A DNA stretch of 64,000 nt, from contig CP066693.1 of NCBI GenBank assembly GCA_016432525.1, positions 416,815-480,814 of the forward strand. Reading direction: 5' to 3'. The notes below the pieces were generated by a model. That model did no database searches. It saw nothing but the letters and a program-made list of their open reading frames with translations, and was not told where the DNA came from. Positions 1 to 29,068 of this stretch are shown here, piece by piece. Made by a program: the position numbers and the translations under genes. Origin of the DNA: Candidatus Woesebacteria bacterium (GTDB taxonomy: Bacteria > Patescibacteriota > Microgenomatia > UBA8517). How positions within the stretch are numbered: the first letter of the stretch is position 1; every line of letters begins with the position of its first letter.

Positions 1-2
1 AA

Positions 3-545
3 ATAAACACCCAAAATTGGCACAATTCCCTCGCCATACTCTTTCAAGAATTTGAAAAATACCCATTTAGTGCAAAAGAAACAATCGGCTATGGAGATAT
101 CGAAAGAATACATACAGATGAAGATATAAAAGAAGCAGCCAAAAAAACAAACATAGATGAGTTTATTGAAGATCTTGAACTAAAATACAAGAATCCTCTA
201 GATCCACAGTTTGAAAAAGGTGTAAGCCCTTCAGTTGGTCAATGGCAAAGACTTGGAATATCAAGGATGCTTTTTAGAAAAAACGCAAGAATAATTATTA
301 TGGATGAACCAACAAGTAATGTAGATCCAGAAGCCGAAGAAAAAATATTTAAAGAATTAACAAAAAAGACTAAAGACAAAATTTTAATTTTTGTTACCCA
401 AAGGTTTTCAACAGTGCGCCTTGCAGATAGAATATTTGTAGTAGACAAGGGGAGAATAATCGAAAATGGAACACATTCTGATCTTATGAAAAAAGCCGGC
501 ACTTATGCAAAACTTTTCAACCTTCAAGCCAAAGGCTACAAATAA
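3..545 (+). CDS. ABC transporter ATP-binding domain, C-terminal part of an exporter (5' end outside window)
   Basis: Frame 3 is open from position 3. The translation carries an ABC signature-like GVSPSVGQWQRLGISR, a Walker B IIIMDEPTS, and a D-loop/H-loop region. The 267..545 ORF is the tail of this frame. Confidence 0.8.
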   Translation: MNTQNWHNSLAILFQEFEKYPFSAKETIGYGDIERIHTDEDIKEAAKKTNIDEFIEDLELKYKNPLDPQFEKGVSPSVGQWQRLGISRMLFRKNARIIIMDEPTSNVDPEAEEKIFKELTKKTKDKILIFVTQRFSTVRLADRIFVVDKGRIIENGTHSDLMKKAGTYAKLFNLQAKGYK

Positions 546-599
546 TCTGCAATTTAATTGATCCTATAATTTGAATTTAAACTCAAAATATGATATATT

Positions 600-866
600 A
601 TCCATATCGCTCGTTTGACATACGGAGAAACCGACATGCTATCCCCAGAATTCTGCGAGGAAGTGTTATCGGTTATTCGCGATTTTGCGAAACTAGGCTG
701 GATGATCACCATAAGTGAGGCGTGTGCATTGGTTTGCTCCAGGCACATAGTTCGGCTCCAGCCGATAACTCCGAAATAAAGCGAATTTAAAATAAATTTA
801 TCACTGCTACATGCGCCCTCTTTTTAAGGTACAATAACCTTACAAAGCCAGGGCGCGTTCAATTTC
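600..866. ncRNA. Candidate structured RNA or cis-regulatory leader (GC-rich, nested stems); identity unknown
   Basis: Local GC is far above the about 33% background. Nested complementary segments are visible: GTTATCGG 665-672 with CCGATAAC 762-769, GGCTGGA 696-702 with TCCAGCC 757-763, and TGTGC 723-727 with GCACA 743-747. There is no convincing ORF with an RBS. Confidence 0.25.
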
Positions 867-1514
867 ATGAGTAAACTTCTAAATTTTCTTACTGGAACTA
901 AAATTCTTGACGAAAAAACTTCTATTCACAATGGAAAACTAACAGTAGTAAAAGATTTTACTTTTGGTACCTATATAAAAGGTGGAGGATTAACTCAATC
1001 AGGGGGCGTTGCAAAAGATGTATGGAGTTCGTCTCTTAAAAAAGTTAAAAGTAAAAACATTAAGATCAAAAAAGCCTTAATCCTAGGTTTGGGTGGAGGC
1101 TCAATTGCTCAAATCATTAAAAGGCTTTGGCCCTCTGCAAAAATTACAGGAATCGATATCGACCCAATTATTGTTGAATTTGGTAAAAAATATATGGGTC
1201 TTGATAAATTAAATGTCGAAATTCATATACAAGACGCTCTTTCTTTTATCGAAACTAAGTCACTTCCTGAATACGATTTAATTTGCGTTGACACATATCA
1301 AGGCGATATTTTTCCTGAAAAGTTCGAAAATTTAGATTTCTTAAAAAATATCACAAAAATTCTCTCAAAAAATGGGGTTATTGTTTTTAATAGGCTTTAT
1401 TATGGAGAAAAAAGGCCTCAAGCCATGAAATTTTTGATTTCCCTTGAAAAAGTTTTCCCAAAAGTTGAAGTCGTCCATCCAGAAGCAAACATCATGTTCA
1501 TATGCAAAGTTTAA
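867..1514 (+). CDS. Spermidine synthase-like SAM-dependent methyltransferase-fold protein
   Basis: A Gly-rich SAM-binding motif (LILGLGGGSIAQ) followed by ITGIDIDP and DLICVDTY, typical of the PABS/class I methyltransferase fold. Confidence 0.55.
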   Translation: MSKLLNFLTGTKILDEKTSIHNGKLTVVKDFTFGTYIKGGGLTQSGGVAKDVWSSSLKKVKSKNIKIKKALILGLGGGSIAQIIKRLWPSAKITGIDIDPIIVEFGKKYMGLDKLNVEIHIQDALSFIETKSLPEYDLICVDTYQGDIFPEKFENLDFLKNITKILSKNGVIVFNRLYYGEKRPQAMKFLISLEKVFPKVEVVHPEANIMFICKV

Positions 1515-2309
1515 TTATCTATTTCTCTCATTGCTAACAAAAGCAATAGTTCCAATTGAAATAAAAAGCAAAAACATAGCTCCAATTACAACCAAATCAA
1601 TTAATGTACTGAATAAAACTGTTTTTGAATACTCGGCCATACCTGTATAAAAAACAGATCTTACAAGATCAACTGCATAAGTCATTGGCGCAATTCTTGA
1701 AAGAACTAAAAGTGCTGGAGGCAGATTTTTAACTGGTCCAAAAACTCCAGCCAAGAAAAATTGTGGAAAAATCACAAATGGGAATATTTGATTAGCAGCT
1801 CTTTGAGATTTTAAATTTGATAAAACAAATACACCAAAAGCGCCTCCCAGTGCACAAACAATTAATGCAAATGGAGCAAGGCGTAAAAACTCAAAAACAG
1901 TTAAATGCACTCCCATTACAAACCCAAAAAGAAAAACCCCAATCCCTTGGGTTAAAGCAACCAAAGATTCTCCTAAAATTTTCCCAACAATTATTGAGTA
2001 ACGTGATATTGGAGACACAAAAATCTCCTGAGAAAAATCATTTTCTCTATCTTCAATTAATGAAATCACACCTGATGCAGTTGACTGGAAAAGCGTTTGT
2101 CCTAAAACTCCTATAAAAATAAACGTCAAAAAATTATATCCAGCATTTGCTCCCAAATTTGATTGCAAGCTTGATCCCAATATTCCCACAAAAACAAAAG
2201 GAAATATAAAAGTTGCGATAATGCGCCCGCGATCCCTCAAAAACTTTGAAAAATCCCTATAAGCTATAGTTAGTATTGCGTTTACTTCATGCATGGTTAT
2301 TATTCTCAA
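1515..2309 (-). CDS. ABC-2 type transporter permease
   Basis: 264 aa with six predicted TM helices. It overlaps the upstream ATPase gene by 23 nt, consistent with translational coupling. Confidence 0.75.
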   Translation of the reverse strand: MRIITMHEVNAILTIAYRDFSKFLRDRGRIIATFIFPFVFVGILGSSLQSNLGANAGYNFLTFIFIGVLGQTLFQSTASGVISLIEDRENDFSQEIFVSPISRYSIIVGKILGESLVALTQGIGVFLFGFVMGVHLTVFEFLRLAPFALIVCALGGAFGVFVLSNLKSQRAANQIFPFVIFPQFFLAGVFGPVKNLPPALLVLSRIAPMTYAVDLVRSVFYTGMAEYSKTVLFSTLIDLVVIGAMFLLFISIGTIAFVSNERNR

Positions 2310-3228
2310 TTATTTCCAAATAAGCATCTTCAAGTGTAGGATTATGAATATCCAAATAATTTAAAGGTGTCTTTATAGAAGAAATTACTTTTTGAGGATT
2401 TTTGCCTCTAAGATTAATCATAATATTTTCCTTTTCTTCAAAATTAAGTTTTAATTTTTTAAGCTCAGAAATAAGTTTCCTCTTACTTTTTGAATCCACC
2501 AATAAATAATTTTTGATTAATTCCTTTTTAATTTTAGAAGGAGTTCCGGAAGAAACAATTTTTCCTTTGTTAATTATAAACACATGATCAGCTCCTTCAG
2601 CCTCCTCCAAATAATGAGTTGTTAAAAAAATTGTAGTTTTTTCACTCTTTCGAACTTCATTTAAATATTGCCATAAATTTTTTCTTGAAAGTGGATCAAG
2701 CCCACTTGTTGGTTCATCTAAAAATAAAATTTTTGGTTTATGGATTAAACTCCTCATAATTTCAAGTTTTCTCTTCATTCCACCTGAAAAAGTTTTTATA
2801 GGTTTAAAAATATCTTTCTGGATTCCCAAAATCTCAGAAAGTTCATATACTTTCTTCTGATAAGCCTTACTCATAAATCCAAAAGTTGGTGCAAAAGGAT
2901 AAATTCCATACAAAATTGCATGAAATCTGACATTCTCCTCAGCTGTTAAATTCTGGTCTAAGCTTGGATTCTGAAAAATTATTCCAATCGATTTTCTAAC
3001 TTCCTTTTGATTCTTATCTAAATCATATCCAGCCAAGCTCACTTTTCCAGAAGTTTTAGACAGTGTTGTTGTAAGAATTGAAATAGTAGTTGTTTTCCCA
3101 GCTCCATTAGGACCCAAAAAAGAAAAAAACTCTCCCTCTGAAACATCAAATGTGATATCATCTACTGCATTTGTATTTGCTTTGTTGTATTTCTTAACTA
3201 ATCGAGAGACATCAATTATTTTGCCCAT
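2287..3228 (-). CDS. ABC transporter ATP-binding protein
   Basis: Walker A GPNGAGKTT, signature SGGMKRKLEIMRS, Walker B LFLDEPTSGLD, H-loop TTHYLEEA. Confidence 0.9.
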   Translation of the reverse strand: MGKIIDVSRLVKKYNKANTNAVDDITFDVSEGEFFSFLGPNGAGKTTTISILTTTLSKTSGKVSLAGYDLDKNQKEVRKSIGIIFQNPSLDQNLTAEENVRFHAILYGIYPFAPTFGFMSKAYQKKVYELSEILGIQKDIFKPIKTFSGGMKRKLEIMRSLIHKPKILFLDEPTSGLDPLSRKNLWQYLNEVRKSEKTTIFLTTHYLEEAEGADHVFIINKGKIVSSGTPSKIKKELIKNYLLVDSKSKRKLISELKKLKLNFEEKENIMINLRGKNPQKVISSIKTPLNYLDIHNPTLEDAYLEIIENNNHA

Positions 3229-3241
3229 ACAAGTATTTTAC

Positions 3242-3269
3242 ACTGGCACTAAGAAGATTCAATTGCTAA
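3242..3269. repeat. 28-bp direct repeat, copy 1 (ACTGGCACTAAGAAGATTCAATTGCTAA)
   Basis: Matches 5923-5950 with one mismatch. It sits between the HExxH gene stop and the ABC ATPase start. Confidence 0.6.
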
Positions 3270-4112
3270 TTATATAATAAAACCATTAAGAAGTTTGTCT
3301 GGCCATTCTTTTTTATATTTATCTACAATTATTCTTCCGAAAACTTTCGTAAAATTATGTGGATCGTCAACAATCACAGAGTCCTCTTTCTCAAGATTTT
3401 TATCTTTTTCTTTTTTTGCAAAAATACGAAGCGTGTTAATTTCTGAAACTTTTAAATCTTCCAAAAAATTAACCCAAAATATTTTTGATGCACTATATTC
3501 AACAGAGTATGCAAATAACTCTGACATAAATTGATGCAATTCTCCAAAATAAGGAAAACGAATTTGACCATTAAGAACACTGTCTTCGCCCATTAAATAA
3601 TTGATACTATTATTGATATATTTCAAATTTTCATCTTTATTTGCCAGAAACCATAATTTATGCCTGTTGTAATATATATGTGCATATTCATGAACAATTG
3701 TTGCTATATAACTTTCTTTTGATTTATAAGGAGATTCAACAATCTTTTCATGAATATTTTTAAAATCACTAAATAATGACCCAAACGGTGTTTCATCGTT
3801 TGGCAAAATTTTCTTAATAATCTCATTTATTTTATTTATATAAATTCCTGCGGACCATTTTTTGAAATCTCTAAAACCAAACTCAAAATTGTTTGATAAT
3901 TTATATACATTAATATCTTTTTTTGAAAAAATTTTATCTAATAATATTTTCCTTTCAGAAAAAATATATAAATTATTTTTATCAAAACTAATTGGAGAGA
4001 TGTTTTTTAGAAATTTCTTATCAAAAAAAATATAATCTAATTTAGGATCACGAACAACCAACATTCCTTCGATAATTGCTTCAAAATCAGAATCATTTGT
4101 CATAACTGTCAT
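3270..4112 (-). CDS. HExxH-motif protein, putative zinc metallopeptidase (candidate leader peptidase)
   Basis: 280 aa containing TIVHEYAHIYY (HExxH). It is divergent from the rSAM gene and shares a 74-nt AT-rich intergenic region with it. No signal peptide. Confidence 0.5.
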   Translation of the reverse strand: MTVMTNDSDFEAIIEGMLVVRDPKLDYIFFDKKFLKNISPISFDKNNLYIFSERKILLDKIFSKKDINVYKLSNNFEFGFRDFKKWSAGIYINKINEIIKKILPNDETPFGSLFSDFKNIHEKIVESPYKSKESYIATIVHEYAHIYYNRHKLWFLANKDENLKYINNSINYLMGEDSVLNGQIRFPYFGELHQFMSELFAYSVEYSASKIFWVNFLEDLKVSEINTLRIFAKKEKDKNLEKEDSVIVDDPHNFTKVFGRIIVDKYKKEWPDKLLNGFII

Positions 4113-4201
4113 TTTAGCTTAAATTTATATCAATATGATACAATATCGCTGGTAATAAAATACTATACTAGGTACCTTAACAAAGGTTGAAAGGTTGCAA
4201 A

Positions 4202-5581
4202 ATGAAGAGCTTTCGTCTGAAAGATGGTGTTTTTTTTGTAAAAGGAGCACTGAATGGTGCCCTTTTAGACACTACTACAGGTAATGTCTATTCAATAAAC
4301 CAAATTGCTGTTTCGATAATAACCAAGGAAAAAGAAAATCAAGAATATTGGGAAAAACTTATCCAAATGAAATTGGCTGAAGAATGCTCCGTCGCTAGTT
4401 CATTACCAGACATACCTCGAATGTCCTCAATAAGTTTAAAATTTGTCTGGTTTGAAATAATATCAAACGATTGCAACGAATCATGTATACACTGTTATGC
4501 AGAAAGTATGCCGCCGTCTCATAGAAAAGCACTTGGACTTGTTGATATCTCAGGAGAAAACAAAACAAAATTAAAGCTAACTTATGCGGATTGGGTAAAA
4601 TACATTCAAGAAGCATATGATCTGGGATGCCGAAGATGTCAATTTATCGGTGGCGAACCCTTTGTTTACAAAGAAGGAGACAAAACAGTTCTAGATCTAG
4701 CAAGTTTTGCTAAAGAAATTGGCTATGAGTTTGTTGAAATTTTCACCAATGCGACTTTGCTGACACATGAGAAAATCGACAGAATAAAAAGACTAAACCT
4801 AAACGTTGCAGTTTCATTATATTCTCATGATCCACAGATTCATGATTCAATTACACAAACACCAGGTAGTCATTCGAGGACGGTTCAAAATCTCAAGTCG
4901 TTAAAATTAGCAGGAGTTAAAACTCGTGTAGAAATTGTAATAATGAAACAAAACCAAAACACGATTGAAGAAACACAGATTCTAATTAAAGACATTGGTT
5001 TTAGTGGCAAACATCCTGATCCAATTCGACCAAAAGGAAGGGGAGATAATTTGAGCATTAGACCAGATCCTGAAAAAACAGTCGAATATGGTTACATGAC
5101 AAAGCCAAATTTTACAGCTAACAAAAACACAATTGCACACTATTCAAAAGGTCATAGTTGCTTGGCTGGAAAAATAACATTAACTGATTCTGGAGACATA
5201 CTACCATGCATATTCTCTCGTAATCACATAATCGGCAATGTATTAAAAGTGGCCTCATTGGAGTCGATATTGTTGAGCGAAGCTATGCAACAAGTATGGA
5301 ACACAACTAAAGACAGTGTCCTAGTTTGTCGCGACTGTGAATATCGCTACGTATGCTTTGATTGTAGGCCTCTTTCGGAAGCAGCAGCAAGCGGAAATTC
5401 TGATTATATGCATGCCCCATATCCACGTTGTACACATAATCCATATACAGGAGAATGGGCAAAGGGCACATGGAGAGTAAACGAAAAAGGAGAACCTTGG
5501 TATGATCGATCCATAGAACCCATTATAAATATGGTTATAGAAAAAAGAGGATTTAAATCAACTCAACCTTCTGGTCATTAA
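4202..5581 (+). CDS. Radical SAM/SPASM-domain peptide maturase with N-terminal PqqD-like RRE
   Basis: CNESCIHC (CX3CX2C) radical SAM cluster motif. C-terminal Cys cluster CRDCEYRYVCFDC...C typical of SPASM/twitch domains. The N-terminus GNVYSINQIAVSI resembles the PqqD-like RiPP recognition element. ATG at 4202 is preferred over TTG at 4187. Confidence 0.85.
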   Translation: MKSFRLKDGVFFVKGALNGALLDTTTGNVYSINQIAVSIITKEKENQEYWEKLIQMKLAEECSVASSLPDIPRMSSISLKFVWFEIISNDCNESCIHCYAESMPPSHRKALGLVDISGENKTKLKLTYADWVKYIQEAYDLGCRRCQFIGGEPFVYKEGDKTVLDLASFAKEIGYEFVEIFTNATLLTHEKIDRIKRLNLNVAVSLYSHDPQIHDSITQTPGSHSRTVQNLKSLKLAGVKTRVEIVIMKQNQNTIEETQILIKDIGFSGKHPDPIRPKGRGDNLSIRPDPEKTVEYGYMTKPNFTANKNTIAHYSKGHSCLAGKITLTDSGDILPCIFSRNHIIGNVLKVASLESILLSEAMQQVWNTTKDSVLVCRDCEYRYVCFDCRPLSEAAASGNSDYMHAPYPRCTHNPYTGEWAKGTWRVNEKGEPWYDRSIEPIINMVIEKRGFKSTQPSGH

Positions 5582-5605
5582 CCAACAACATATAAAGGAG
5601 AAAAA

Positions 5606-5866
5606 ATGTCAATAAAAATAATCGAAGAACCAACAATCATTCTAGTTTCACCTCGAATTGTAAACTACTGCGCGCCTGAACAAGGAGATTGTGGTCCAGA
5701 TCACACCTGTTCACCTGATCAAAATTGTTCACCAGATCAAGAAGAATATTACTGCGGACCAGAAACAACAACTTGTGGCCCAGATTTACGAACTCCAGAG
5801 CCTGAGTATACTTGTGGTCCTGAACAAGGAGATTGTGGTCCAGATCACACCTGTTCACCTGATTAG
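5606..5866 (+). CDS. Cys-rich repeat peptide, putative RiPP precursor (9 x C-[AGS]-P-[DE])
   Basis: Strong RBS AAAGGAG 7 nt upstream. An about 20-aa leader-like N-terminus is followed by a core with nine Cys, each followed by x-Pro-Asp/Glu. It lies immediately downstream of the rSAM/SPASM gene. A 42-bp internal DNA duplication occurs at 5683-5724 and 5822-5863. Confidence 0.7.
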   Translation: MSIKIIEEPTIILVSPRIVNYCAPEQGDCGPDHTCSPDQNCSPDQEEYYCGPETTTCGPDLRTPEPEYTCGPEQGDCGPDHTCSPD

Positions 5867-5881
5867 TCATGGACGCATAAC

Positions 5882-5918
5882 CGGTTAGATAATCAAAATC
5901 TAGCCGGTTTTTTATTTA
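5882..5918 (+). terminator. Rho-independent terminator after precursor gene
   Basis: Stem CCGGTTAGAT / ATCTAGCCGG followed by TTTTTTATTTATT. Confidence 0.6.
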
Positions 5919-5922
5919 TTGT

Positions 5923-5950
5923 ACTGGCACTAAGAAGATTCAACTGCTAA
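5923..5950. repeat. 28-bp direct repeat, copy 2 (ACTGGCACTAAGAAGATTCAACTGCTAA)
   Basis: 27/28 identity with 3242-3269. Located just after the precursor-gene terminator. Confidence 0.6.
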
Positions 5951-6020
5951 AATAAAGCTGTCTATTGCTATATTTAAATGATTTTAGGATAATATCATGC
6001 CTCTGCTAAAATAACTGTAT

Positions 6021-8729
6021 ATGATTAAAAACTTTTTAAAAGGAATAATAGATATTAACCAAAAAGAAGTTGCGCACCTTCAAAAGGTTGTGGATAAAGT
6101 TAATCTCCATGAAGCAAAATACAAAAAATTCAAATTAACTGACTTCCCAAAAGAAACTAAAAAATTCCAAAAAAGGATTGAAGAAGGGGAAATTCTGGAA
6201 AGTATCCTTCCTGAAGCCTTTGCACTCGTCAGAGAGGCATCAGATAGAGCCATAGGTCTAAGGCATTATGATGTCCAGCTGATGGCAGCTGTAGCACTTT
6301 TTGAAGGCAAAGTTGCTGAGCAAAAAACAGGGGAAGGAAAGACCTTATCAGCCGTCCCAGCTTTATATCTTCGTGCTATAACAGGTAAAGGAGTTCATCT
6401 TGTTACTGTCAATGATTATCTTGCTCGCCGTGATGCTGGTTGGAATGCTCCAATTTTTCATCTTTTGGGATTAACTGTTGGCTCAATTATTCAAGAAAAC
6501 AAATCTTTTGTCTACGATCCTAATTTTACCGACAATAGCCATGGCGACGAGCGTCTTTCCCATTTAAAGCCAACTGAAAGAAAAAAGGCTTATGAGGCAG
6601 ACATTACTTATGGAACTAATAATGAATTTGGTTTTGATTATTTAAGAGATAATATGGTTGGATCTCTCACAGAAATGGCTCAGCGTGGTCATTATTTTGC
6701 AATTGTTGACGAGGTCGATTCAGTGCTTATTGATGAGGCCCGTACTCCTCTTATTATCTCAGCTCCAGATATGGAGCCCACTGATAAATATTATAAATTC
6801 GCATCAATTATAGATAAATTAGTTCCAGATACTGATTATGAAATAGACGAAAAGATGAAAAGTGCAACTCTCACTGAAGACGGAATCGCAAAAATAGAAA
6901 AAATCCTAAAAGTTGATAATTTATACGAAAAAGATTTTGATGCAATTCACCACATTGAAAACGCTCTTCGAGCAAGATCACTGTATCTTCTTGATCGAGA
7001 TTATGTAGTAAAAGATGGCCAGGTAATAATAGTTGATGAATTTACAGGCCGTCTTATGTTTGGACGTCGTTGGAGCGATGGTCTTCACCAGGCAGTTGAA
7101 GCAAAAGAAGGAGTAACTATTCAACAGGAAAGTAAAACCTTAGCAACCATCTCTTTCCAGAATTACTTCAGAATGTATGAAGTTTTATCAGGAATGACAG
7201 GAACAGCTCTAACTGAGGCTGATGAGTTCAAAAAAATCTATGAAATAGAAGTTGTTGCAATTCCAACCAATATGCCAATGGTAAGAAAAGATAAATCAGA
7301 TGCAATTTATAAAACCATCAAGGCCAAATACGAAGCAGTTGCCAATCGAATTGCCGATCTTCACAAAAAAGGACAGCCTGTTCTTGTAGGTACTACATCA
7401 ATTGAGAAAAATGAAATCATTTCAGAATTTCTTAAAAGCAAAAAAATTCCCCACAACGTCTTAAACGCCAAAAACCACGAAAAAGAAGCTATGATTTTAG
7501 CCGAAGCAGGAAAGCCAGGAGGCGTGACTGTTGCAACCAATATGGCAGGCCGTGGAGTTGATATTATATTAGGAGGCGCCTCTCCAAGTAAAAAATCAAA
7601 GCAATATAAAACCTGGGAAAAAAATCATGAAAAAGTAGTAAAAGCAGGAGGGCTTTTTGTTTTGGGAACAGAGCGTCATGAGTCTCGCCGTATCGATAAC
7701 CAGCTTCGAGGTCGTTCTGGTCGTCAAGGCGATCCAGGCACTACTCAATTCTTTCTTTCCTTGGAAGATGATCTAATGAGAGTTTTTGGAGGAACCCAAA
7801 TTGCAAGTATTATGGATAGACTCAGACTTCCAGATAATGAGCCAATTGAAAATAGATTGGTTTCAAGAGCAATTGAATCAGCCCAAATAAAAGTTGAAGG
7901 ATTCCACTTTGACGCCAGGAAAAGAGTTGTCGAATATGATGATGTAGCCAATCAGCAAAGAGATATTGTTTACAAATTAAGACGAAGAATTCTTGAGTCA
8001 AACAATGTCAAAGACGAAGTTTTAGAAAAGCTCGATAATCAAGTTGATCGAATCCTCTTAAAATATGCTCCCTTAGAAAATCAACGGAAAGGTTTCAAAA
8101 AAGAAGTTAAAGATCTCCAAATATCAAAAGAAAATGCAGAAACAATTGCAGTTTCTCTAGCTGATACGATTCCTTTTGACGATGCCTCAGTTAAGGCAAT
8201 TGCAAAACAACTCGAAAAATTCAAAAGCCATTCAAAACTTCAAGAATTTCTTAAGAAATTAATTCTAGATACACATCAAAGTCGCGAATCCCAACTAAAA
8301 CCAGAAGGCATGAGGCTTGTTGAAAAATATGCATATCTAAACTCAATTGACCATTTGTGGATTGACCATCTTGACCAAATAGATGACCTACGAGAAGGAA
8401 TTAACTTAAGAGCTTATGGCCAAAGAGATCCATTAGTTGAGTTTAAAAACGAAGCGTATGACCTCTTTGAAACTTTGATAGATAAAATTGATGAAGAGTT
8501 AGCCCATAGAATTTTTAGGATGAATATAATGCCAAACCCCCAAACCGAAATTCCGGTTAATCTAGCTCAAACAAATGAAGATTTATCGGACAATATCGGA
8601 TTAGCAGATTCCCCTCAAAGGAAAAAAATTATCAAACGAACTGGCTCCAAAATGGGTCGAAACGACCCCTGTTGGTGTGGAAGCGGTAAAAAATGGAAAA
8701 AATGCCACTACCCTCAATTACCTTCTTGA
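6021..8729 (+). CDS. secA: Preprotein translocase ATPase SecA
   Basis: 902 aa. DEAD-like motor motifs (AEQKTGEGKT, VDEVDSVLIDEA), preprotein cross-linking and wing/scaffold regions, C-terminal zinc finger CWCGSGKKWKKCH. Confidence 0.95.
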   Translation: MIKNFLKGIIDINQKEVAHLQKVVDKVNLHEAKYKKFKLTDFPKETKKFQKRIEEGEILESILPEAFALVREASDRAIGLRHYDVQLMAAVALFEGKVAEQKTGEGKTLSAVPALYLRAITGKGVHLVTVNDYLARRDAGWNAPIFHLLGLTVGSIIQENKSFVYDPNFTDNSHGDERLSHLKPTERKKAYEADITYGTNNEFGFDYLRDNMVGSLTEMAQRGHYFAIVDEVDSVLIDEARTPLIISAPDMEPTDKYYKFASIIDKLVPDTDYEIDEKMKSATLTEDGIAKIEKILKVDNLYEKDFDAIHHIENALRARSLYLLDRDYVVKDGQVIIVDEFTGRLMFGRRWSDGLHQAVEAKEGVTIQQESKTLATISFQNYFRMYEVLSGMTGTALTEADEFKKIYEIEVVAIPTNMPMVRKDKSDAIYKTIKAKYEAVANRIADLHKKGQPVLVGTTSIEKNEIISEFLKSKKIPHNVLNAKNHEKEAMILAEAGKPGGVTVATNMAGRGVDIILGGASPSKKSKQYKTWEKNHEKVVKAGGLFVLGTERHESRRIDNQLRGRSGRQGDPGTTQFFLSLEDDLMRVFGGTQIASIMDRLRLPDNEPIENRLVSRAIESAQIKVEGFHFDARKRVVEYDDVANQQRDIVYKLRRRILESNNVKDEVLEKLDNQVDRILLKYAPLENQRKGFKKEVKDLQISKENAETIAVSLADTIPFDDASVKAIAKQLEKFKSHSKLQEFLKKLILDTHQSRESQLKPEGMRLVEKYAYLNSIDHLWIDHLDQIDDLREGINLRAYGQRDPLVEFKNEAYDLFETLIDKIDEELAHRIFRMNIMPNPQTEIPVNLAQTNEDLSDNIGLADSPQRKKIIKRTGSKMGRNDPCWCGSGKKWKKCHYPQLPS

Positions 8730-8809
8730 CAAATAATATCAGTAGGTTTTGCTTTTCAAACCGGGAAACATCGTTTCTTCTGCTAAACTCTTTATCACAA
8801 GCCCACAAA

Positions 8810-8850
8810 GGCACAAAGATTTCCAAAAGAAGTCAGTGTGCCTTTTTATT
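8810..8850. terminator. Bidirectional intrinsic terminator between convergent secA and the 8855..9973 gene
   Basis: Stem GGCACA / TGTGCC with T-run on + strand and A-run upstream, so U-run on - strand. Confidence 0.5.
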
Positions 8851-8854
8851 TTTC

Positions 8855-9973
8855 TTAAGCAGCGAGTCTATTTCTTAAATTAATAAGAAGCGGTTCAGGG
8901 TTAACAGTTGAAGTCTGATAACAATTCCAAATTTGACTTTCCCGTGTATTTGATCTTGTAAGTTTATCAACCACTTGATCTGTGTTGTAATCCAAATAAT
9001 CTATTCCAGCTCCACCAGTTCTACTACCGTATTGAGATATCCAGCCATTTTCTTTAGTTAACACATAACAAATTGCTGTTTGCTCAAATCTATCCTCATA
9101 TACTTGTTTTTCTTGATTAAAAACTTGCTTTTTTGGTTTTTCCAAAACCCAAACTTTCATAATTACTTCATCTGTTATCTTTTGGCCATTTTTGATAAAA
9201 GAATATTTTTCATTTTTTGTTTCTGTTCCATCTTTTCCTTGAATCTCAACTACAGCCCCATCCTTTGTGTATCCTCTAAATCTTTTGGCATACATTTTAT
9301 CTCGTGGATCCTCTCTTTTATTTGGATCAAAGTCAGCTCTGATTAATTTAAATTTCCCGGCCTCTCTAAACTCATCTTCTACATATCTAGTGTCATTCCA
9401 AGTTCTTGGTTTATATTCAGCTTTTTCACTTTCGCTTTTCTCGGTTGGTGTTTCTGTCTGTTTTTCCTCTTGTTTAGGAAGTTCTTCTTGCTTCGGTCCA
9501 CTCTTTCTAATTCTGTCAAAAACACCCTCTTTTACTGCTTTTTCATCTACTGATCTAATTGCTCCATCAGCTGTCCATAATTCCACACCATCTTCTGAAC
9601 TTTTATAACCTCGAAAACTCTGAAGATACCAATGTCCATCTCTATCCATCGTGTAGCACTGACTAGTTCCAGATCCTTTTCCATCTTTTTTGATAACCCA
9701 AAAATGAGCCGCGACCTCTCTTGTCTGACCATATATATCTACATGATCCTTTTCTATCGACCCCTTAGTACTTATTTGAATATGAAGTTCTGTTCCATCC
9801 TCTAAAGTCTTGACTCTACGATCATCGAACATTCTACTTGCTCTGTTTGTTGTATCTTGTTTTTTTTCAAATCCAGCCGATGTTGAACCCCAAGCTAAAT
9901 TTGCAATATATTTATCAGCCTTTATTTTTTCAGGTGCCAATTCCTGCATCTCTCTCACCAAATCTGACGCCAT
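8855..9973 (-). CDS. Hypothetical protein with internal duplication and acidic linker
   Basis: 372-aa ORF. Two related segments (YTMDRDGHWYLQSFRGY... and AKRFRGYTKDG...) are separated by a Lys/Glu-rich low-complexity stretch. No recognisable family. Confidence 0.45.
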   Translation of the reverse strand: MASDLVREMQELAPEKIKADKYIANLAWGSTSAGFEKKQDTTNRASRMFDDRRVKTLEDGTELHIQISTKGSIEKDHVDIYGQTREVAAHFWVIKKDGKGSGTSQCYTMDRDGHWYLQSFRGYKSSEDGVELWTADGAIRSVDEKAVKEGVFDRIRKSGPKQEELPKQEEKQTETPTEKSESEKAEYKPRTWNDTRYVEDEFREAGKFKLIRADFDPNKREDPRDKMYAKRFRGYTKDGAVVEIQGKDGTETKNEKYSFIKNGQKITDEVIMKVWVLEKPKKQVFNQEKQVYEDRFEQTAICYVLTKENGWISQYGSRTGGAGIDYLDYNTDQVVDKLTRSNTRESQIWNCYQTSTVNPEPLLINLRNRLAA

Positions 9974-9998
9974 AATTTAAATATACTATAATTTACAA

Positions 9999-10574
9999 AT
10001 GACAGGAAGAACCCATGACCTTATAGGTTTTGCATCCCTAATAACTGTTGCAGTTGCCACCCCATCATTGAGTTTAAATATTGAGACCTTGGTAGTCTCA
10101 ATAGTTGGAAATGTAGTAGGATCCCTAATTCCAGATATGGACCAAGGAACCAATAAACTTTGGGATCTTTTGCCAGCTGGGAATTTTGTTGCAAAATTCG
10201 GTCGAAAAATTTTTTATAAACACAGAACTATTACTCATTCAATTCTTGGAGGATATTTGCTTTTTATTTTTTTAAAATTTATTATTCCCAAAATTTTTAA
10301 TCCAAATTTTGTTGACCCTCAAATTGTAATTATAAGTATTATGATAGGTTTCGTTGCCCACTTAGTTGCCGATAGTCTAACTCGAGAGGGTTTACCTTTA
10401 TTTTTCCCATTCAAATTCAAAATCGGTTTTCCTCCAATTGAAACTTTAAGAATTCCAACAGGCGGAATAATCGAGCACTTTATAGTTCTACCAGGAACAG
10501 CCATTTACATAATTTGGCTTTTTATTAACAATAAAGACAAAATCCTCTCAATTGCCAAACTTCTGCACAAATGA
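9999..10574 (+). CDS. Membrane-bound metal-dependent hydrolase (DUF457/YdjM-like)
   Basis: 191 aa, polytopic. N-terminus MTGRTHDLIGF and His-rich TM pattern typical of the YdjM family. Confidence 0.5.
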   Translation: MTGRTHDLIGFASLITVAVATPSLSLNIETLVVSIVGNVVGSLIPDMDQGTNKLWDLLPAGNFVAKFGRKIFYKHRTITHSILGGYLLFIFLKFIIPKIFNPNFVDPQIVIISIMIGFVAHLVADSLTREGLPLFFPFKFKIGFPPIETLRIPTGGIIEHFIVLPGTAIYIIWLFINNKDKILSIAKLLHK

Positions 10575-11716
10575 AAAAATTTGGATTCAAAATAATCAAA
10601 AAAGATGAAAAAACAAAAGCTCGATCAGCTGTTATTCATACAGCCCATGGTGATATAAAAACTCCGGCTTTTTCTCCAGTTGCAACAAAAGCCTCAGTTA
10701 AATCTCTAGACCCAAATGATATAAAACTGACTAAATCTCAAGTTGTTTTGGGAAATACTTATCATTTGTATTTGCGTCCAGGCACAAAAATAATTGATGA
10801 TTTTGGTGGTTTTGCCCCATTTATGGGTTGGTCGGGTCCTACAATTACAGATAGTGGAGGATATCAGGTTTCTTTCTTAAGAGGAGTAAAGCCAAAAATA
10901 ACAGACAAAGGAGCCACTTTTAGATCTCACATCGATGGCTCAAAACACCTCATAACTCCAGAAAGCTCTATGGAAATTCAAAAATCTTTAAATGCAGATA
11001 TAATTATGGCATTTGATCAACCTCTTCCTTCAAATGCTCCAGAAAAAAAGAAAAAGGAAGCGTTTATAAGAACCTTAAAATGGGAAGAAAGATCTTTCCT
11101 CCATTGGAAAAAAATAAAATCAACCCAAGCGCTTTTCGGAATTGTTCAAGGTGATCTTGATAAAGATCTAAGGCGTGAGTCTCTTAAATTTATCCTAGAC
11201 TTTGACTTTCCCGGTATTGCGCTCGGCGGTGAATCAATAGGTGTTAGCCCCCAAATAACTTCCCAAACTCTTGATACAATTGTTGACCTTTTGCCCGACG
11301 ATAAACCAGTCCACGCATTGGGTCTTGGTGGGGGAGTTGAAGGAATTTTAGAAAGCATAGAAAGAGGAGTTGATATTTTTGACAATACTTCTGTTACTAG
11401 GATGGCCCGAACAGGACTACTTTTTATTTATCCTGAAGATGGTGGCACAAGGCAAAATAAATTTAGGTACGATTTAACAAAATCCAAATTTAAAGATAAC
11501 AAAAATCCAATCAGTAAAGTTTGTAATTGTTACACCTGTCAAAATTTTTCTTCAAGCTATATTCATCATTTGCTGGTTTCAAATGAAATATTGGGTGCTC
11601 GCCTCGCTACTATTCACAACATCACATTTATAAATAATCTTATGGATAAAATCAGAAATTCTATTGAAAATAGTGAGTTTCAAGTTTTAAAAAGCCATTG
11701 GTTAAATCGCTCTTGA
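10571..11716 (+). CDS. tgt: Queuine tRNA-ribosyltransferase (tRNA-guanine transglycosylase)
   Basis: LGNTYHLYLRPG, catalytic DSGGYQ, zinc site CNCYTCQNFSSSYIHHL. ATGA overlap with the upstream gene. Confidence 0.9.
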   Translation: MKKFGFKIIKKDEKTKARSAVIHTAHGDIKTPAFSPVATKASVKSLDPNDIKLTKSQVVLGNTYHLYLRPGTKIIDDFGGFAPFMGWSGPTITDSGGYQVSFLRGVKPKITDKGATFRSHIDGSKHLITPESSMEIQKSLNADIIMAFDQPLPSNAPEKKKKEAFIRTLKWEERSFLHWKKIKSTQALFGIVQGDLDKDLRRESLKFILDFDFPGIALGGESIGVSPQITSQTLDTIVDLLPDDKPVHALGLGGGVEGILESIERGVDIFDNTSVTRMARTGLLFIYPEDGGTRQNKFRYDLTKSKFKDNKNPISKVCNCYTCQNFSSSYIHHLLVSNEILGARLATIHNITFINNLMDKIRNSIENSEFQVLKSHWLNRS

Positions 11717-11743
11717 CTAGCTGACTATAATATAGTTATACTC

Positions 11744-12358
11744 GTGCGATATATGGAAACACAAAATCAAGCTCAATCCCAAGCTCCACAAGTTGGTTTT
11801 CCAACACCTCAACCAAGACAAAAAAAATCCATGAATCCAATTATAATTATAATTCCTGTTTTCCTGTTAATTTTAGGAGGACTTGCTTATTTCGTATTCA
11901 AAGGAAGCTCAACAGAAGAATCATCTAGCTCTCCAACTCCAGCATCTCGAGAATTATCAACAGTTGTAACTCCATCTCCTGTTCCATCTCCGTCGCCATC
12001 CACTTCACCAGCTGACAAGGGAAGTCTTTCCTTAAGAGTTCTTAATGGAACAGGAATTCCTGGTGAAGCAGGATATCTGCAAGGAATTTTAAAAAATCTT
12101 GGATATACCAAAATTGATACTGGAAATGCAGATACCTCTGACGCAACCTCAACTACAATCGTTTATCTATCTTCAGTTCCACAAAGTTTAATTGATGAGA
12201 TGGTTACAAAACTTAAAACAGTTTATAAATCCGTTAACAGTAGATTAGCTTCAGTAAAAGGAAGCTTTGATATAGAAATCACAACAGGACCAAGAACAGG
12301 TTCAGCTACTCAAACTTCTTCTCCAGCACCAACTTCAACCCCAACAGCAGGCCAATAA
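11744..12358 (+). CDS. Membrane-anchored LytR_C (cell-envelope related) domain protein with Pro/Ser/Thr-rich linker
   Basis: N-terminal TM, PS-rich linker, then LRVLNGTGIPGEAGYLQGILKNLGY typical of the LytR C-terminal domain. Confidence 0.5.
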   Translation: MRYMETQNQAQSQAPQVGFPTPQPRQKKSMNPIIIIIPVFLLILGGLAYFVFKGSSTEESSSSPTPASRELSTVVTPSPVPSPSPSTSPADKGSLSLRVLNGTGIPGEAGYLQGILKNLGYTKIDTGNADTSDATSTTIVYLSSVPQSLIDEMVTKLKTVYKSVNSRLASVKGSFDIEITTGPRTGSATQTSSPAPTSTPTAGQ

Positions 12359-26851: not shown

Positions 26852-29068
26852 ATGAATAAAATAAGAAAATTTATAACAGCGTTATCTATAGTTTTAGTTC
26901 TATTTTTCCAAAGTTCAAATATTCTATTTGCTGAAGATTTAAATATTCCAACCCCCCCTCCTGTTCCAACAGCTCCACCAGCTCCTGTTAATAATACAGT
27001 AGTTCCAACTCCTCCCCCAACACCTACTACGCCACCGTTACCTTCATCTCCTACACCCATTCCAACGCCATCTCCTACTCCTTCTGCATCGCCAAATGCA
27101 TCTCCAGTTCCCTCCCAGTCTCCTTTAAATAGCCCAGATCCTACTGCTTCCCCTGTGCCTCTGGTAATCGGAAATACAGGCAATCAAACAGGTAACCAAA
27201 GCTCAAATGGAGAATCAGGCGCAATCATAAAAACAGGCGATGCAACAAACTCAGTAGGAATTGTCTCGAATGCTAATAGTAATTTAGCAAGTTCTCCAAG
27301 TGGGTCAGCAAGTGTAATCGATCCAATAAACACTGGCAATGGAGCATCCACTCAAAATAACAGTTCCGCCTCGATAGTTGATACTAACAACACAAACCAA
27401 CAAAACTCAGCAACAGTCGTTAATAATCTAACTCAAGGTACAGTTACAGGCATTAACACTGCCTCAAAAAATACAGGTGGGGACTCAACCATAAAAACAG
27501 GCGATGCCAACACATCGGGAAGTGTAATTACAGCAGTTAATACCAATGTCGATGGAGTTGCAGTTCACGAGTTTAATATAGCAGATGACCATATAGGCAA
27601 TATTGTAATAAATCCTACTAACGCGAATTGCACAGCAGGCTGCACTGGCAACCCGGGTACTGTTGCAAATACAGGCAACGGAGCAAATTCTCAAAACACA
27701 GCAAATCAAACAAACATAACTAATAACAATACTTTCCAAAAGAATGATGCAACCGTTGAAAATAACTTAACTCTTGCATCTGATTCAGGCCACAATCAAG
27801 CTAACAAAAACACAGACGGTAACTCAAGTATTACAACTGGAAATGCAAATACTGATGCCAATGTTTTAACTTTCGCAAACAATAATATAAGCGGCAACGT
27901 TGTCTACAATGTCGTAAATATCTTCGGAAAATTAACAGGTGATATTGTTCTTCCATCAGAAGCTTTTACTCAGGTGGCGTCAAATTCTTCAACTCCCTCC
28001 AATTCAGGTAATGGTGCAGGTTCACAAAATACAGTCAATCAAACAAACACTAATAACAATAATATTGCTCAAGTCAACAATGCAAATATAGATAACAATT
28101 TAATTTTTGATGCAACAACAGGCAGTAACGAATCAAGCAAAAACACTAATGGGGATTCCAATATTCAAACTGGAAATTCCTCAGTGACAGCTCAAGTGTT
28201 GAATGTTGCAAATTCAAATCTTTCAGGTGGTAATTGGTGGCTCGTAATAGTCAATGAAGCTGGTCATTGGGTTGGAAAAATTCTAGGCTCGCCTGACGGG
28301 GCAACATTTGCAGGATCTCAGGGAACGGAATTCACAGTTGGACCAAATGGAGAAGTAACCGCCACAAATTCAGGCAATGGTGCAGGTTCACAAAATACAG
28401 CTAATGTAACCAATACAACAAACAATAATACAACTCAAACAAATACAGCAAATGTTGTTAATAATATAAACTTGTCTGCTAATACAGGTAAAAATGAAGC
28501 AATCAAAAATACAGGTGGGGACTCAACCATAAAAACAGGCGATGCCAATATAATTGCCAACTTAGTTAATTTTGTAAATAATAATATTGTAGGCACTGGC
28601 AAACTTTTTGTAACAGTCGTAAATGTTTTTGGCTCCTGGATTGGAAACTTTGTAAGTCCAGATGCAGTTGCCAACGCAAACTCAACAAGCACTCAAACAA
28701 CAAATTCCACCAATACGAATAATGATTCTCGTCCAATCGGTGGTGCATCTAGTCAGTCTTCAAATTCAGATCCAAGTTCTTCAAATCCCATAAACAATAC
28801 GAACACGACAACACCAACAACAGCTTCAAATCCTCGAAACATTCAAAACTATATAGCCAGTATTAAAAACGATGCATCAAAAGTTAAACCAGAAGTTCCC
28901 CAGACGCCAACACAAGTTCTTGCCATGACCACAGAAAATCTAAATAATACTTTAATAAACGGTAAAAAATCCTTAAAAATTAATCTTGCCTGGCTCCTAT
29001 TACTAGCCCCAATTTTGTCATTAATTTTTATAGTCCTGCCAAAAATTAGAGGCAGATATGAGAAATAA
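26852..29068 (+). CDS. Large repetitive surface protein with Pro-rich N-terminal region and C-terminal TM anchor
   Basis: Signal peptide, PT-rich segment, many NTGNGA.../NTGGDSTIKTGDAN modules. Exact 42-bp DNA repeats at about 27470 and 28510. C-terminal hydrophobic helix plus KIRGRYEK. Confidence 0.6.
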   Translation: MNKIRKFITALSIVLVLFFQSSNILFAEDLNIPTPPPVPTAPPAPVNNTVVPTPPPTPTTPPLPSSPTPIPTPSPTPSASPNASPVPSQSPLNSPDPTASPVPLVIGNTGNQTGNQSSNGESGAIIKTGDATNSVGIVSNANSNLASSPSGSASVIDPINTGNGASTQNNSSASIVDTNNTNQQNSATVVNNLTQGTVTGINTASKNTGGDSTIKTGDANTSGSVITAVNTNVDGVAVHEFNIADDHIGNIVINPTNANCTAGCTGNPGTVANTGNGANSQNTANQTNITNNNTFQKNDATVENNLTLASDSGHNQANKNTDGNSSITTGNANTDANVLTFANNNISGNVVYNVVNIFGKLTGDIVLPSEAFTQVASNSSTPSNSGNGAGSQNTVNQTNTNNNNIAQVNNANIDNNLIFDATTGSNESSKNTNGDSNIQTGNSSVTAQVLNVANSNLSGGNWWLVIVNEAGHWVGKILGSPDGATFAGSQGTEFTVGPNGEVTATNSGNGAGSQNTANVTNTTNNNTTQTNTANVVNNINLSANTGKNEAIKNTGGDSTIKTGDANIIANLVNFVNNNIVGTGKLFVTVVNVFGSWIGNFVSPDAVANANSTSTQTTNSTNTNNDSRPIGGASSQSSNSDPSSSNPINNTNTTTPTTASNPRNIQNYIASIKNDASKVKPEVPQTPTQVLAMTTENLNNTLINGKKSLKINLAWLLLLAPILSLIFIVLPKIRGRYEK

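Follow-up and report, generated by a model that had tools for sequence, protein, structure and literature searches.

A 28-bp direct repeat around a three-gene peptide-modification cassette in a Woesebacteria genome is probably a duplicated stretch of the ABC/secA promoter region

Insertion sequences (IS) and transposons duplicate their native target in the same orientation at both edges of the insert, and the target duplications made by transposases usually measure 2–14 bp. Genomic islands and integrative elements that depend on tyrosine or serine recombinases carry attL and attR repeats of tens of bp at the boundaries of their accessory clusters, 28 bp being a typical length for an attachment (att) core. 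Long duplications resulting from widely staggered cuts are known from Cas1-type integrases, i.e. from CRISPR spacer acquisition and from casposons, whose duplications measure 14–15 bp. Here we analyse a stretch of 64,000 nt from Candidatus Woesebacteria bacterium (assembly GCA_016432525.1, contig CP066693.1, positions 416,815 to 480,814 of the forward strand), in the following called the window, in which a pair of 28-bp direct repeats brackets genes for a protein with an HExxH motif, a radical SAM (S-adenosylmethionine; rSAM) protein and a Cys-rich precursor-like peptide. On one side of this cassette lies an operon for an ATP-binding cassette (ABC) exporter of the ABC-2 type, on the other side secA. 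We consider it probable, at roughly 0.68, that the repeats are a promoter stretch shared by the ABC operon and secA, which was duplicated on insertion of the three-gene peptide-modification cassette. The elements on which the argument turns are the following, L023, L033 and L036 being three of the relatives compared below.

3242..3269, plus strand: copy 1 of the 28-mer, ACTGGCACTAAGAAGATTCAATTGCTAA, with the HExxH stop codon on one side and the ABC -10 box on the other
3270..5922: inserted segment of 2,653 nt, comprising the HExxH gene, an internal divergent promoter region, the rSAM/SPASM gene, the precursor gene and a terminator; absent in L023, L033 and L036
5923..5950, plus strand: copy 2 of the 28-mer, ACTGGCACTAAGAAGATTCAACTGCTAA, contiguous with the ancestral secA-side flank and carrying the L033-like base at the variable position

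An earlier note, made from the letters of the window alone, had placed imperfect 28-bp direct repeats at these positions, one after the HExxH stop codon and one after the precursor terminator. Coordinates and orientation proved exact. Copy 1 adjoins the stop codon (3270–3272, minus strand) and lies 13 nt from the ATG of the ABC ATPase gene (3228); copy 2 begins 13 nt past the terminator stem (5879–5909) and lies 70 nt from the ATG of secA (6021). The two copies, with the consensus ACTGGCACTAAGAAGATTCAA[T/C]TGCTAA, are identical at 27 of 28 positions and stand 2,681 nt apart in the same orientation on the plus strand, the sole mismatch being T in copy 1 versus C in copy 2 at position 22. Identity ends sharply, without extension past the 28 nt on either side. 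No third copy was found in the 64 kb (both strands, up to three mismatches), and the pair is the sole near-exact non-coding direct repeat of at least 20 nt in the window, all others lying inside repetitive coding sequence. None of 100 dinucleotide-preserving shuffles contained a match of this kind, and the local alignment score of the two intergenic regions was reached in none of 2000 shuffles. Both copies recur in another assembly of this organism that was deposited separately (GCA_016178105.1, contig JACOTY010000014.1; 100% identity over 7.4 kb), so that an artefact of a single assembly is unlikely.

Relatives were located with the ABC ATPase as anchor, and the comparison set comprised identical strains and distant relatives only. 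Those with a SecA or ABC protein 70–73% identical to that of the window share a backbone of an MgsA-like AAA gene, a methyltransferase gene, (the ABC-2 operon) and secA. In three of them the cassette is missing: the ABC ATPase gene and secA are divergent neighbours 85 nt apart in L023 (SecA 73% identical), and ABC gene and secA are separated by 144 nt in L033 (ABC 72%) and by 63 nt in L036 (ABC 71%), secA having been confirmed by translation in the latter two. Unrelated cargo occupies the same slot elsewhere, namely a 627-aa orphan in L020, a DUF8173 gene in L021 and L022 and a 126-aa membrane open reading frame (ORF) in L016, and in L024 and L025 even the ABC pair is missing. As relatives hold other genes or none at this place, it is a hot spot with several alternative cargos, of which the three-gene cassette is one. 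The direct adjacency of ABC and secA in L023, L033 and L036 marks the module as an insertion and bears out the earlier proposal that it is separable from the neighbouring ABC genes, which, to judge from gene order, are present at the locus independently of the cassette. Searches for closer relatives by ABC ATPase in GTDB genomes and Joint Genome Institute (JGI) metagenomes returned only proteins of at most 79% identity or non-syntenic ones.

Viewed across the Microgenomates (L016, L020, L021/L022, L023, L024, L025, L033 and L036), the interval between methyltransferase and secA is empty, holds the ABC-2 pair alone, or holds the ABC-2 pair together with varying genes. The L020 cargo consists of the 627-aa orphan plus a MacB-type system. 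Two GTDB records titled Gammaproteobacteria or Pseudomonadales metagenome-assembled genomes, L004 (CAYNLS010000001.1) and L005 (CAYSAM010000008.1), contain ABC ATPases 68–69% identical to the Woesebacteria protein, a similarity equal to that of the proteins from named Microgenomates; the titles of these records may be wrong.

The empty sites also tell what stood there before the insertion. When insert and one repeat are removed from the window, a 111-nt ABC–secA spacer results; beginning at the secA start codon and up to and including the 28-mer, it is colinear with L033. Window positions 5941–5971 (CAACTGCTAAAATAA-AGCTGTCTATTGCTAT) match L033 positions 2606–2575 over 31/32 nt (BLAST, E = 5e-8), and the match runs from within copy 2 over its right edge into the secA-side flank. 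Because the match crosses this edge, the right edge of copy 2 is ancestral sequence and not an insertion junction. The 28-mer homologue of L033 (20/28) is the top match in the 5.3-kb locus, intergenic and in the same orientation; its score was equalled in 2 of 200 shuffles, and it bears the copy-2 base at the variable position. In L036, the top match of the locus falls into the 63-nt spacer (TTAGCACTTGATCATATAAACTGCCAGG, 18/28) and keeps the blocks TTAGCAnTTGA and TGCCAG. It is followed by GTTAAAAT, which contains a TAAAAT box, and then by the ABC start, mirroring copy 1 and the GTAAAAT next to it. Thus, both junctions of the reconstructed empty site are found, separately, in relatives, the secA side in L033 and the ABC side in L036. 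The earlier note had proposed to look for a single copy in relatives without the cassette: three sites are empty (L023, L033 and L036), and two of them (L033 and L036) hold a single homologue. The view that the repeat would be a duplicated native target sequence is supported by this comparison. A possible continuation of the L033 homology into the insert, via the adjacency of TTTATYGT, was rejected with 324 of 1000 shuffles scoring as high.

In addition, two divergent promoters seem to overlap in the 28-mer and to have their core there. The candidate promoters were found by hexamer scans, and their function is judged from consensus and conservation.

3235..3262, minus strand: predicted promoter of the ABC operon, -35 TTGAAT (3262–3257, in copy 1), 16-nt spacer, -10 TAAAAT (3240–3235, outside the repeat)
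5924..5953, plus strand: predicted distal secA promoter P1, CTGGCA, 18 nt, TGcTAAAAT, with the -10 box (5948–5953) straddling the right edge of copy 2
5965..5993, plus strand: conserved putative secA promoter P2, TTGCTA-17-GATAAT, outside the repeat

On the minus strand, copy 1 reads TTAGCAATTGAATCTTCTTAGTGCCAGT, followed by GTAAAATACTTGT and ATG, and covers -41 to -14 of the predicted ABC promoter. As the ATG comes 6 nt after the -10 box, a leaderless ABC mRNA is predicted. The architecture is of the sigma-70 type, with -35 and -10 hexamers at a spacing of 16–18 nt and boxes kept at orthologous positions: that of P1 is also present in L033 and L036, and P2 (TTGCnA-17-GATAAT) is common to the window, L022, L023 and L033. 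The end blocks of the 28-mer that are kept in L036 and L033 coincide with promoter boxes, TTAGCAnTTGA being TCAAnTGCTAA on the other strand and TGCCAG being CTGGCA, and in L036, L033 and L020 the boxes were retained and the spacers diverged. On the plus strand copy 1 now meets TAATTA, not TAAAAT, and on the minus strand copy 2 has no -10 box at a spacing of 16–18 nt. Each copy appears to keep one intact predicted promoter after the duplication. The earlier suggestion of a shared regulatory element holds in part, as the stretch that was duplicated has the look of a core for the divergent promoters of ABC and secA. A sigma-54 promoter was rejected, as TGGCAC and TTGC are present at a GG-to-GC spacing of 20 nt, not 12. 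The 12-mer CTGCTAAAATAA occurs twice upstream of secA, at 5944–5955 (edge of copy 2) and at 6003–6014, 6 nt before the ATG; the second occurrence lies within a stretch of about 25 nt that is missing in L033 and looks like a small second duplication of a promoter box.

Leaderless transcription may not be confined to the ABC operon. In 13 of 58 long ORFs, the start codon is preceded at 5–10 nt by a TAnAAT box, as compared to 1.9% of all ATG triplets, and the genes for the ABC ATPase, the HExxH protein and SecA all show this pattern, which suggests that leaderless transcripts are widespread in this Woesebacteria genome. Boxes of the form TAAAAT or TATAAT precede many first genes by 5–10 nt, e.g. 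those starting at 3228, 4103, 6021, 9999, 13449 and 17148, and a Shine–Dalgarno (SD)-like tetramer was seen in only 8/58 long ORFs. A literature search on leaderless mRNAs in the Candidate Phyla Radiation (CPR) found nothing directly relevant.

On this basis, the history of the locus may be pictured as follows. The ancestor would have had the ABC-2 exporter operon on the minus strand and secA on the plus strand, diverging from a spacer of about 110 nt with one 28-mer. On the minus strand, TTGAAT of the 28-mer would have served as the -35 box of the ABC operon, with TAAAAT just past the repeat edge and a leaderless mRNA. On the plus strand, CTGGCA-18-TGcTAAAAT would have formed a secA-directed promoter whose -10 box extended across the opposite repeat edge. 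The 2,653-nt cassette would then have inserted into this promoter core, and the 28 bp between the breakpoints would have been duplicated, either by staggered breaks and fill-in or by a crossover on a 28-bp identity. Copy 1 and the old ABC-side flank would preserve the ABC promoter, and copy 2 and the old secA-side flank the secA promoter. Because the duplicated core gives each flanking operon a full promoter, an insertion into overlapping divergent promoters would be tolerable.

Several observations weigh against this history. The closest comparison, L016 (ABC 91%), has a different gene upstream and retains just the few ABC-proximal bases and the -10 box. The nearest empty sites come from organisms merely 71–73% identical in ABC or SecA protein, the 28-mer homologues at empty sites are 64–71% identical, and the empty-site spacer of L023, which has diverged too far, contains no recognisable homologue. 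The scan for further 28-mer copies covered approx. 72 kb of a genome of roughly 916 kb. Domain searches of all three ORFs found no recombinase, integrase or transposase in 3270–5922, terminal inverted repeats were not significant (left end versus reverse-complemented right end, 243 of 1000 shuffles as good), and no att-type structure was found. A repeat of 28 bp is much longer than a typical target duplication of a transposase. The rSAM and precursor genes have an ordinary G+C content, so that composition does not brand the whole cassette as foreign. Finally, promoter activity and transcription starts are predictions.

The earlier note had attributed the repeats to insertion by site-specific recombination or transposition. 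Of this, insertion with target duplication stands; no specific machinery (recombinase, terminal inverted repeats, tRNA, hairpin) came to light, and the cassette does not encode the enzyme for the insertion. With flanks of 10 nt, neither copy folded better than shuffles on either strand (minimum free energy 0 to -1.8 kcal/mol), no tRNA or tmRNA gene was found in positions 1–12000, and no RNA family of Rfam was matched. An integron attC or other hairpin site was rejected, since the region does not fold, as was a tRNA-derived att site, since no tRNA was found. A Xer/dif site, a 28-bp site of 11-6-11 layout, was likewise rejected: the arms ACTGGCACTAA and TCAATTGCTAA are asymmetric, and the copies are direct, not inverse. 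On these features the locus does not classify as an IS or transposon, an integrase-borne island, an integron cassette or a Xer/dif module. The further suggestion that the module is a mobile unit found no support, as the cassette was not seen a second time in the fetched DNA or in collections of viruses, phages and plasmids. In its behaviour the feature resembles a target-site duplication or an att-core repeat around a small genomic islet.

A parallel in L020 bears on both possibilities. Its unrelated insert, with the 627-aa orphan gene at 6633–8516, is bracketed by TTTTCAAGTGATAA and TTTACAAGTGATAA, which are 13/14 identical, a score reached in 7 of 2000 shuffles.

6545–6579 and 8531–8546 of L020: direct repeat of the homologous promoter segment

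Within the 28-mer, it is the secA-proximal half to which the L020 repeat is homologous, with the same end position. It could reflect a preferred break site; alternatively, it could be that only insertions that duplicate the shared promoter core survive beside an essential gene. The ABC promoter of L020 also holds a perfect inverted repeat, TTATCACT-N11-AGTGATAA, which is operator-like.

If the two copies were attL and attR, a circular cassette with a 28-bp core would have recombined with the chromosome by means of a site-specific recombinase encoded elsewhere and acting in trans, or of RecA working on the short identity. Same-orientation repeats at the exact edges of the cassette, a single homologous site at empty loci and the usual length of att cores are in line with such an event. 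A single mismatch would fit hybrid att sites, copy 2 retaining the L033-like base, and in L020 a homologous segment brackets unrelated cargo with its secA-side edge at the same position after TGnTAA. Nevertheless, the 2.65-kb segment lacks an integrase, its three ORFs being all accounted for, and a tRNA target is missing. Searches of viral contigs, phages and plasmids matched neither the cassette nor the 28-mer, no second place in the genome was seen to hold the cassette, and the repeats of the two lineages are not of one length (28 versus 14–16 nt). We therefore regard att recombination as unlikely, and prefer duplication of the native promoter segment on insertion.

Less probable still is that the 28-mer is an operator or promoter module held in two copies by selection for joint control of ABC operon, cassette and secA, and that the bracketing is incidental. 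The overlap with predicted promoter boxes on both strands, the end blocks kept in relatives and the operator-like inverted repeat in the homologous region of L020 would agree with such a module, whereas its two copies are oppositely oriented relative to the genes that they precede, and the 28-mer is without dyad symmetry (direct reading; no fold). Moreover, one promoter per copy has lost its -10 partner, and empty sites hold one copy. The copies are identical at 27/28 positions within the genome versus 64–71% with orthologous sites, which argues for a recent duplication rather than independent maintenance.

An extension of the duplication history would make the ABC/secA divergent promoter of Microgenomates a dedicated cargo-capture site, with an undescribed integration activity from outside the cargo, widely staggered breaks and duplications of 14–28 bp. 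In two lineages with unrelated cargo the homologous promoter segment is duplicated, both duplications have their secA-side edge after the same TGnTAA, and the slot is occupied by at least four different cargos. These findings would fit such a site, which we put forward as a long shot. A chance match or assembly artefact, conceivable in AT-rich genomes with their many short imperfect repeats (dozens were listed at 70–80% identity), has next to no probability, as shuffles never reached the observed match, both copies recur in the separate assembly and relatives hold a homologous single copy.

The genes of the cassette and its flanks are as follows.

867–1514, plus strand: spermine-synthase-like methyltransferase gene
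1515..2297, minus strand: ABC-2 permease gene, second in the flanking operon
2287..3228, minus strand: ABC-2 (DrrA-like) ATPase gene, flanking the insertion
3270..4112, minus strand: HExxH protein gene, 280 aa, or 277 aa if counted from the ATG at 4103
4113–4201: putative divergent promoter region inside the cassette, 89 nt
4202..5581, plus strand: gene for a radical SAM/SPASM-type peptide maturase, 459 aa, CxxxCxxC = CNESCIHC
5606..5866, plus strand: precursor-like Cys-rich ORF, 86 aa
5879..5919, plus strand: intrinsic-terminator-like hairpin (5879–5909) and T tract, the end of the cassette 3 nt before copy 2
6021..8729, plus strand: secA, the other flank of the insertion

The HExxH gene is co-oriented with the ABC operon, without a terminator between them, and has the lowest G+C content among the 58 long ORFs (24.9%, z = -3.2). 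Its product is zincin-like, with H141, E142, H145 and E198 invariant in the family. The family is rare: an exhaustive HMMER search gave 85 representative clusters, the nearest homologue being 40% identical and the one named member coming from Daviesbacteria, and a word-indexed homology search returned only the protein itself. Among the members is MBI4036645.1, on a 283-kb Daviesbacteria contig. A confident AlphaFold model (predicted local distance difference test score, pLDDT, 89; predicted template modelling score, pTM, 0.87) had no significant match in the PDB by Foldseek, and the Pfam matches, all sub-threshold, were to the zincin-like families WLM, SprT-like and M78. The rSAM protein matches PF04055 (E = 2.8e-20), and every NCBIfam match stayed below its cut-off, the best being TIGR04193 with 82 bits against a cut-off of 175. 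The precursor ORF has nine C-x-P-[D/E] motifs, an SD-like AAGGAG upstream and an exact internal duplication of 45 nt or 15 aa (PEQGDCGPDHTCSPD), 5675–5719 being identical to 5819–5863; it matched no Pfam or NCBIfam family. The Logan contig L002 terminates at window position 5704, within the first copy of this 45-nt repeat. A literature search on this type of cassette found nothing directly relevant.

Two further observations concern other parts of the window. A stretch of 320 nt (546–866), with the end of an ABC gene on one side and the methyltransferase gene on the other, is without a called gene; its G+C content is higher (approx. 0.39), it holds a 54-aa ORF only, and no Rfam family was matched. 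Tandem coding repeats with a period of approx. 333–366 nt occupy 27203–28548 inside a 738-aa ORF (26852–29068), with units of 190 nt that are 65–71% identical and 44-nt cores that are up to 100% identical.

Taken as an insertion footprint, the repeat pair tells when and within which limits a reduced (approx. 0.9 Mb) CPR genome acquired a peptide-modification cassette that is uncharacterised, and identifies a recurrent cargo slot beside the essential secA gene. The flanking 28-bp repeats are, in addition, a substrate for precise loss of the cassette.

How the locus relates to described systems can be considered separately for cargo and insertion. The cargo resembles rSAM/SPASM clusters for RiPPs (peptides made on the ribosome and modified after translation) with Cys-rich precursors of the sactipeptide or ranthipeptide type, as an enzyme with the radical SAM motif CxxxCxxC and a SPASM-like C-terminus is joined by a short precursor next to it in which Cys motifs recur, by a putative metallopeptidase and by an ABC exporter in the neighbourhood. 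In contrast to these clusters, none of its three proteins reaches the cut-off of a curated family, neither the C-x-P-[D/E] repeat nor the HExxH family has been characterised, and the ABC exporter is older at this locus than the cassette. The insertion shares with the products of Cas1-type integrases a long duplication as expected from widely staggered cuts. The likeness is one of size only, as Cas1, a casposase, an array and terminal inverted repeats were not seen in the vicinity of the site and what was inserted is a gene cassette of 2.65 kb. With the attL/attR repeats of islands it has in common a repeat of tens of bp exactly at the cluster boundaries and a conserved hot spot with lineage-varying cargo, but no integrase lies in or beside the segment, which has the ABC-2 operon on one side and secA on the other, a promoter serves as target in place of a tRNA or tmRNA gene, and the cassette was seen at no other site. 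Like the target-site duplications of IS and transposons, the repeats are same-orientation copies of a native target at both insert edges, with a single copy in empty relatives. They differ in that a transposase and terminal inverted repeats are missing, in their 28 bp as compared to the customary size, and in that the apparent parallel in L020 has another length (14–16 nt), unlike the fixed length produced by a given transposase. Current understanding is not overturned by these results. Most likely, the feature is a real insertion footprint of an ordinary kind, a 28-bp target duplication in a cargo hot spot, and it stands apart from the described systems by its length, by an insertion for which no enzyme was found and by the reuse of one promoter as a cargo slot.

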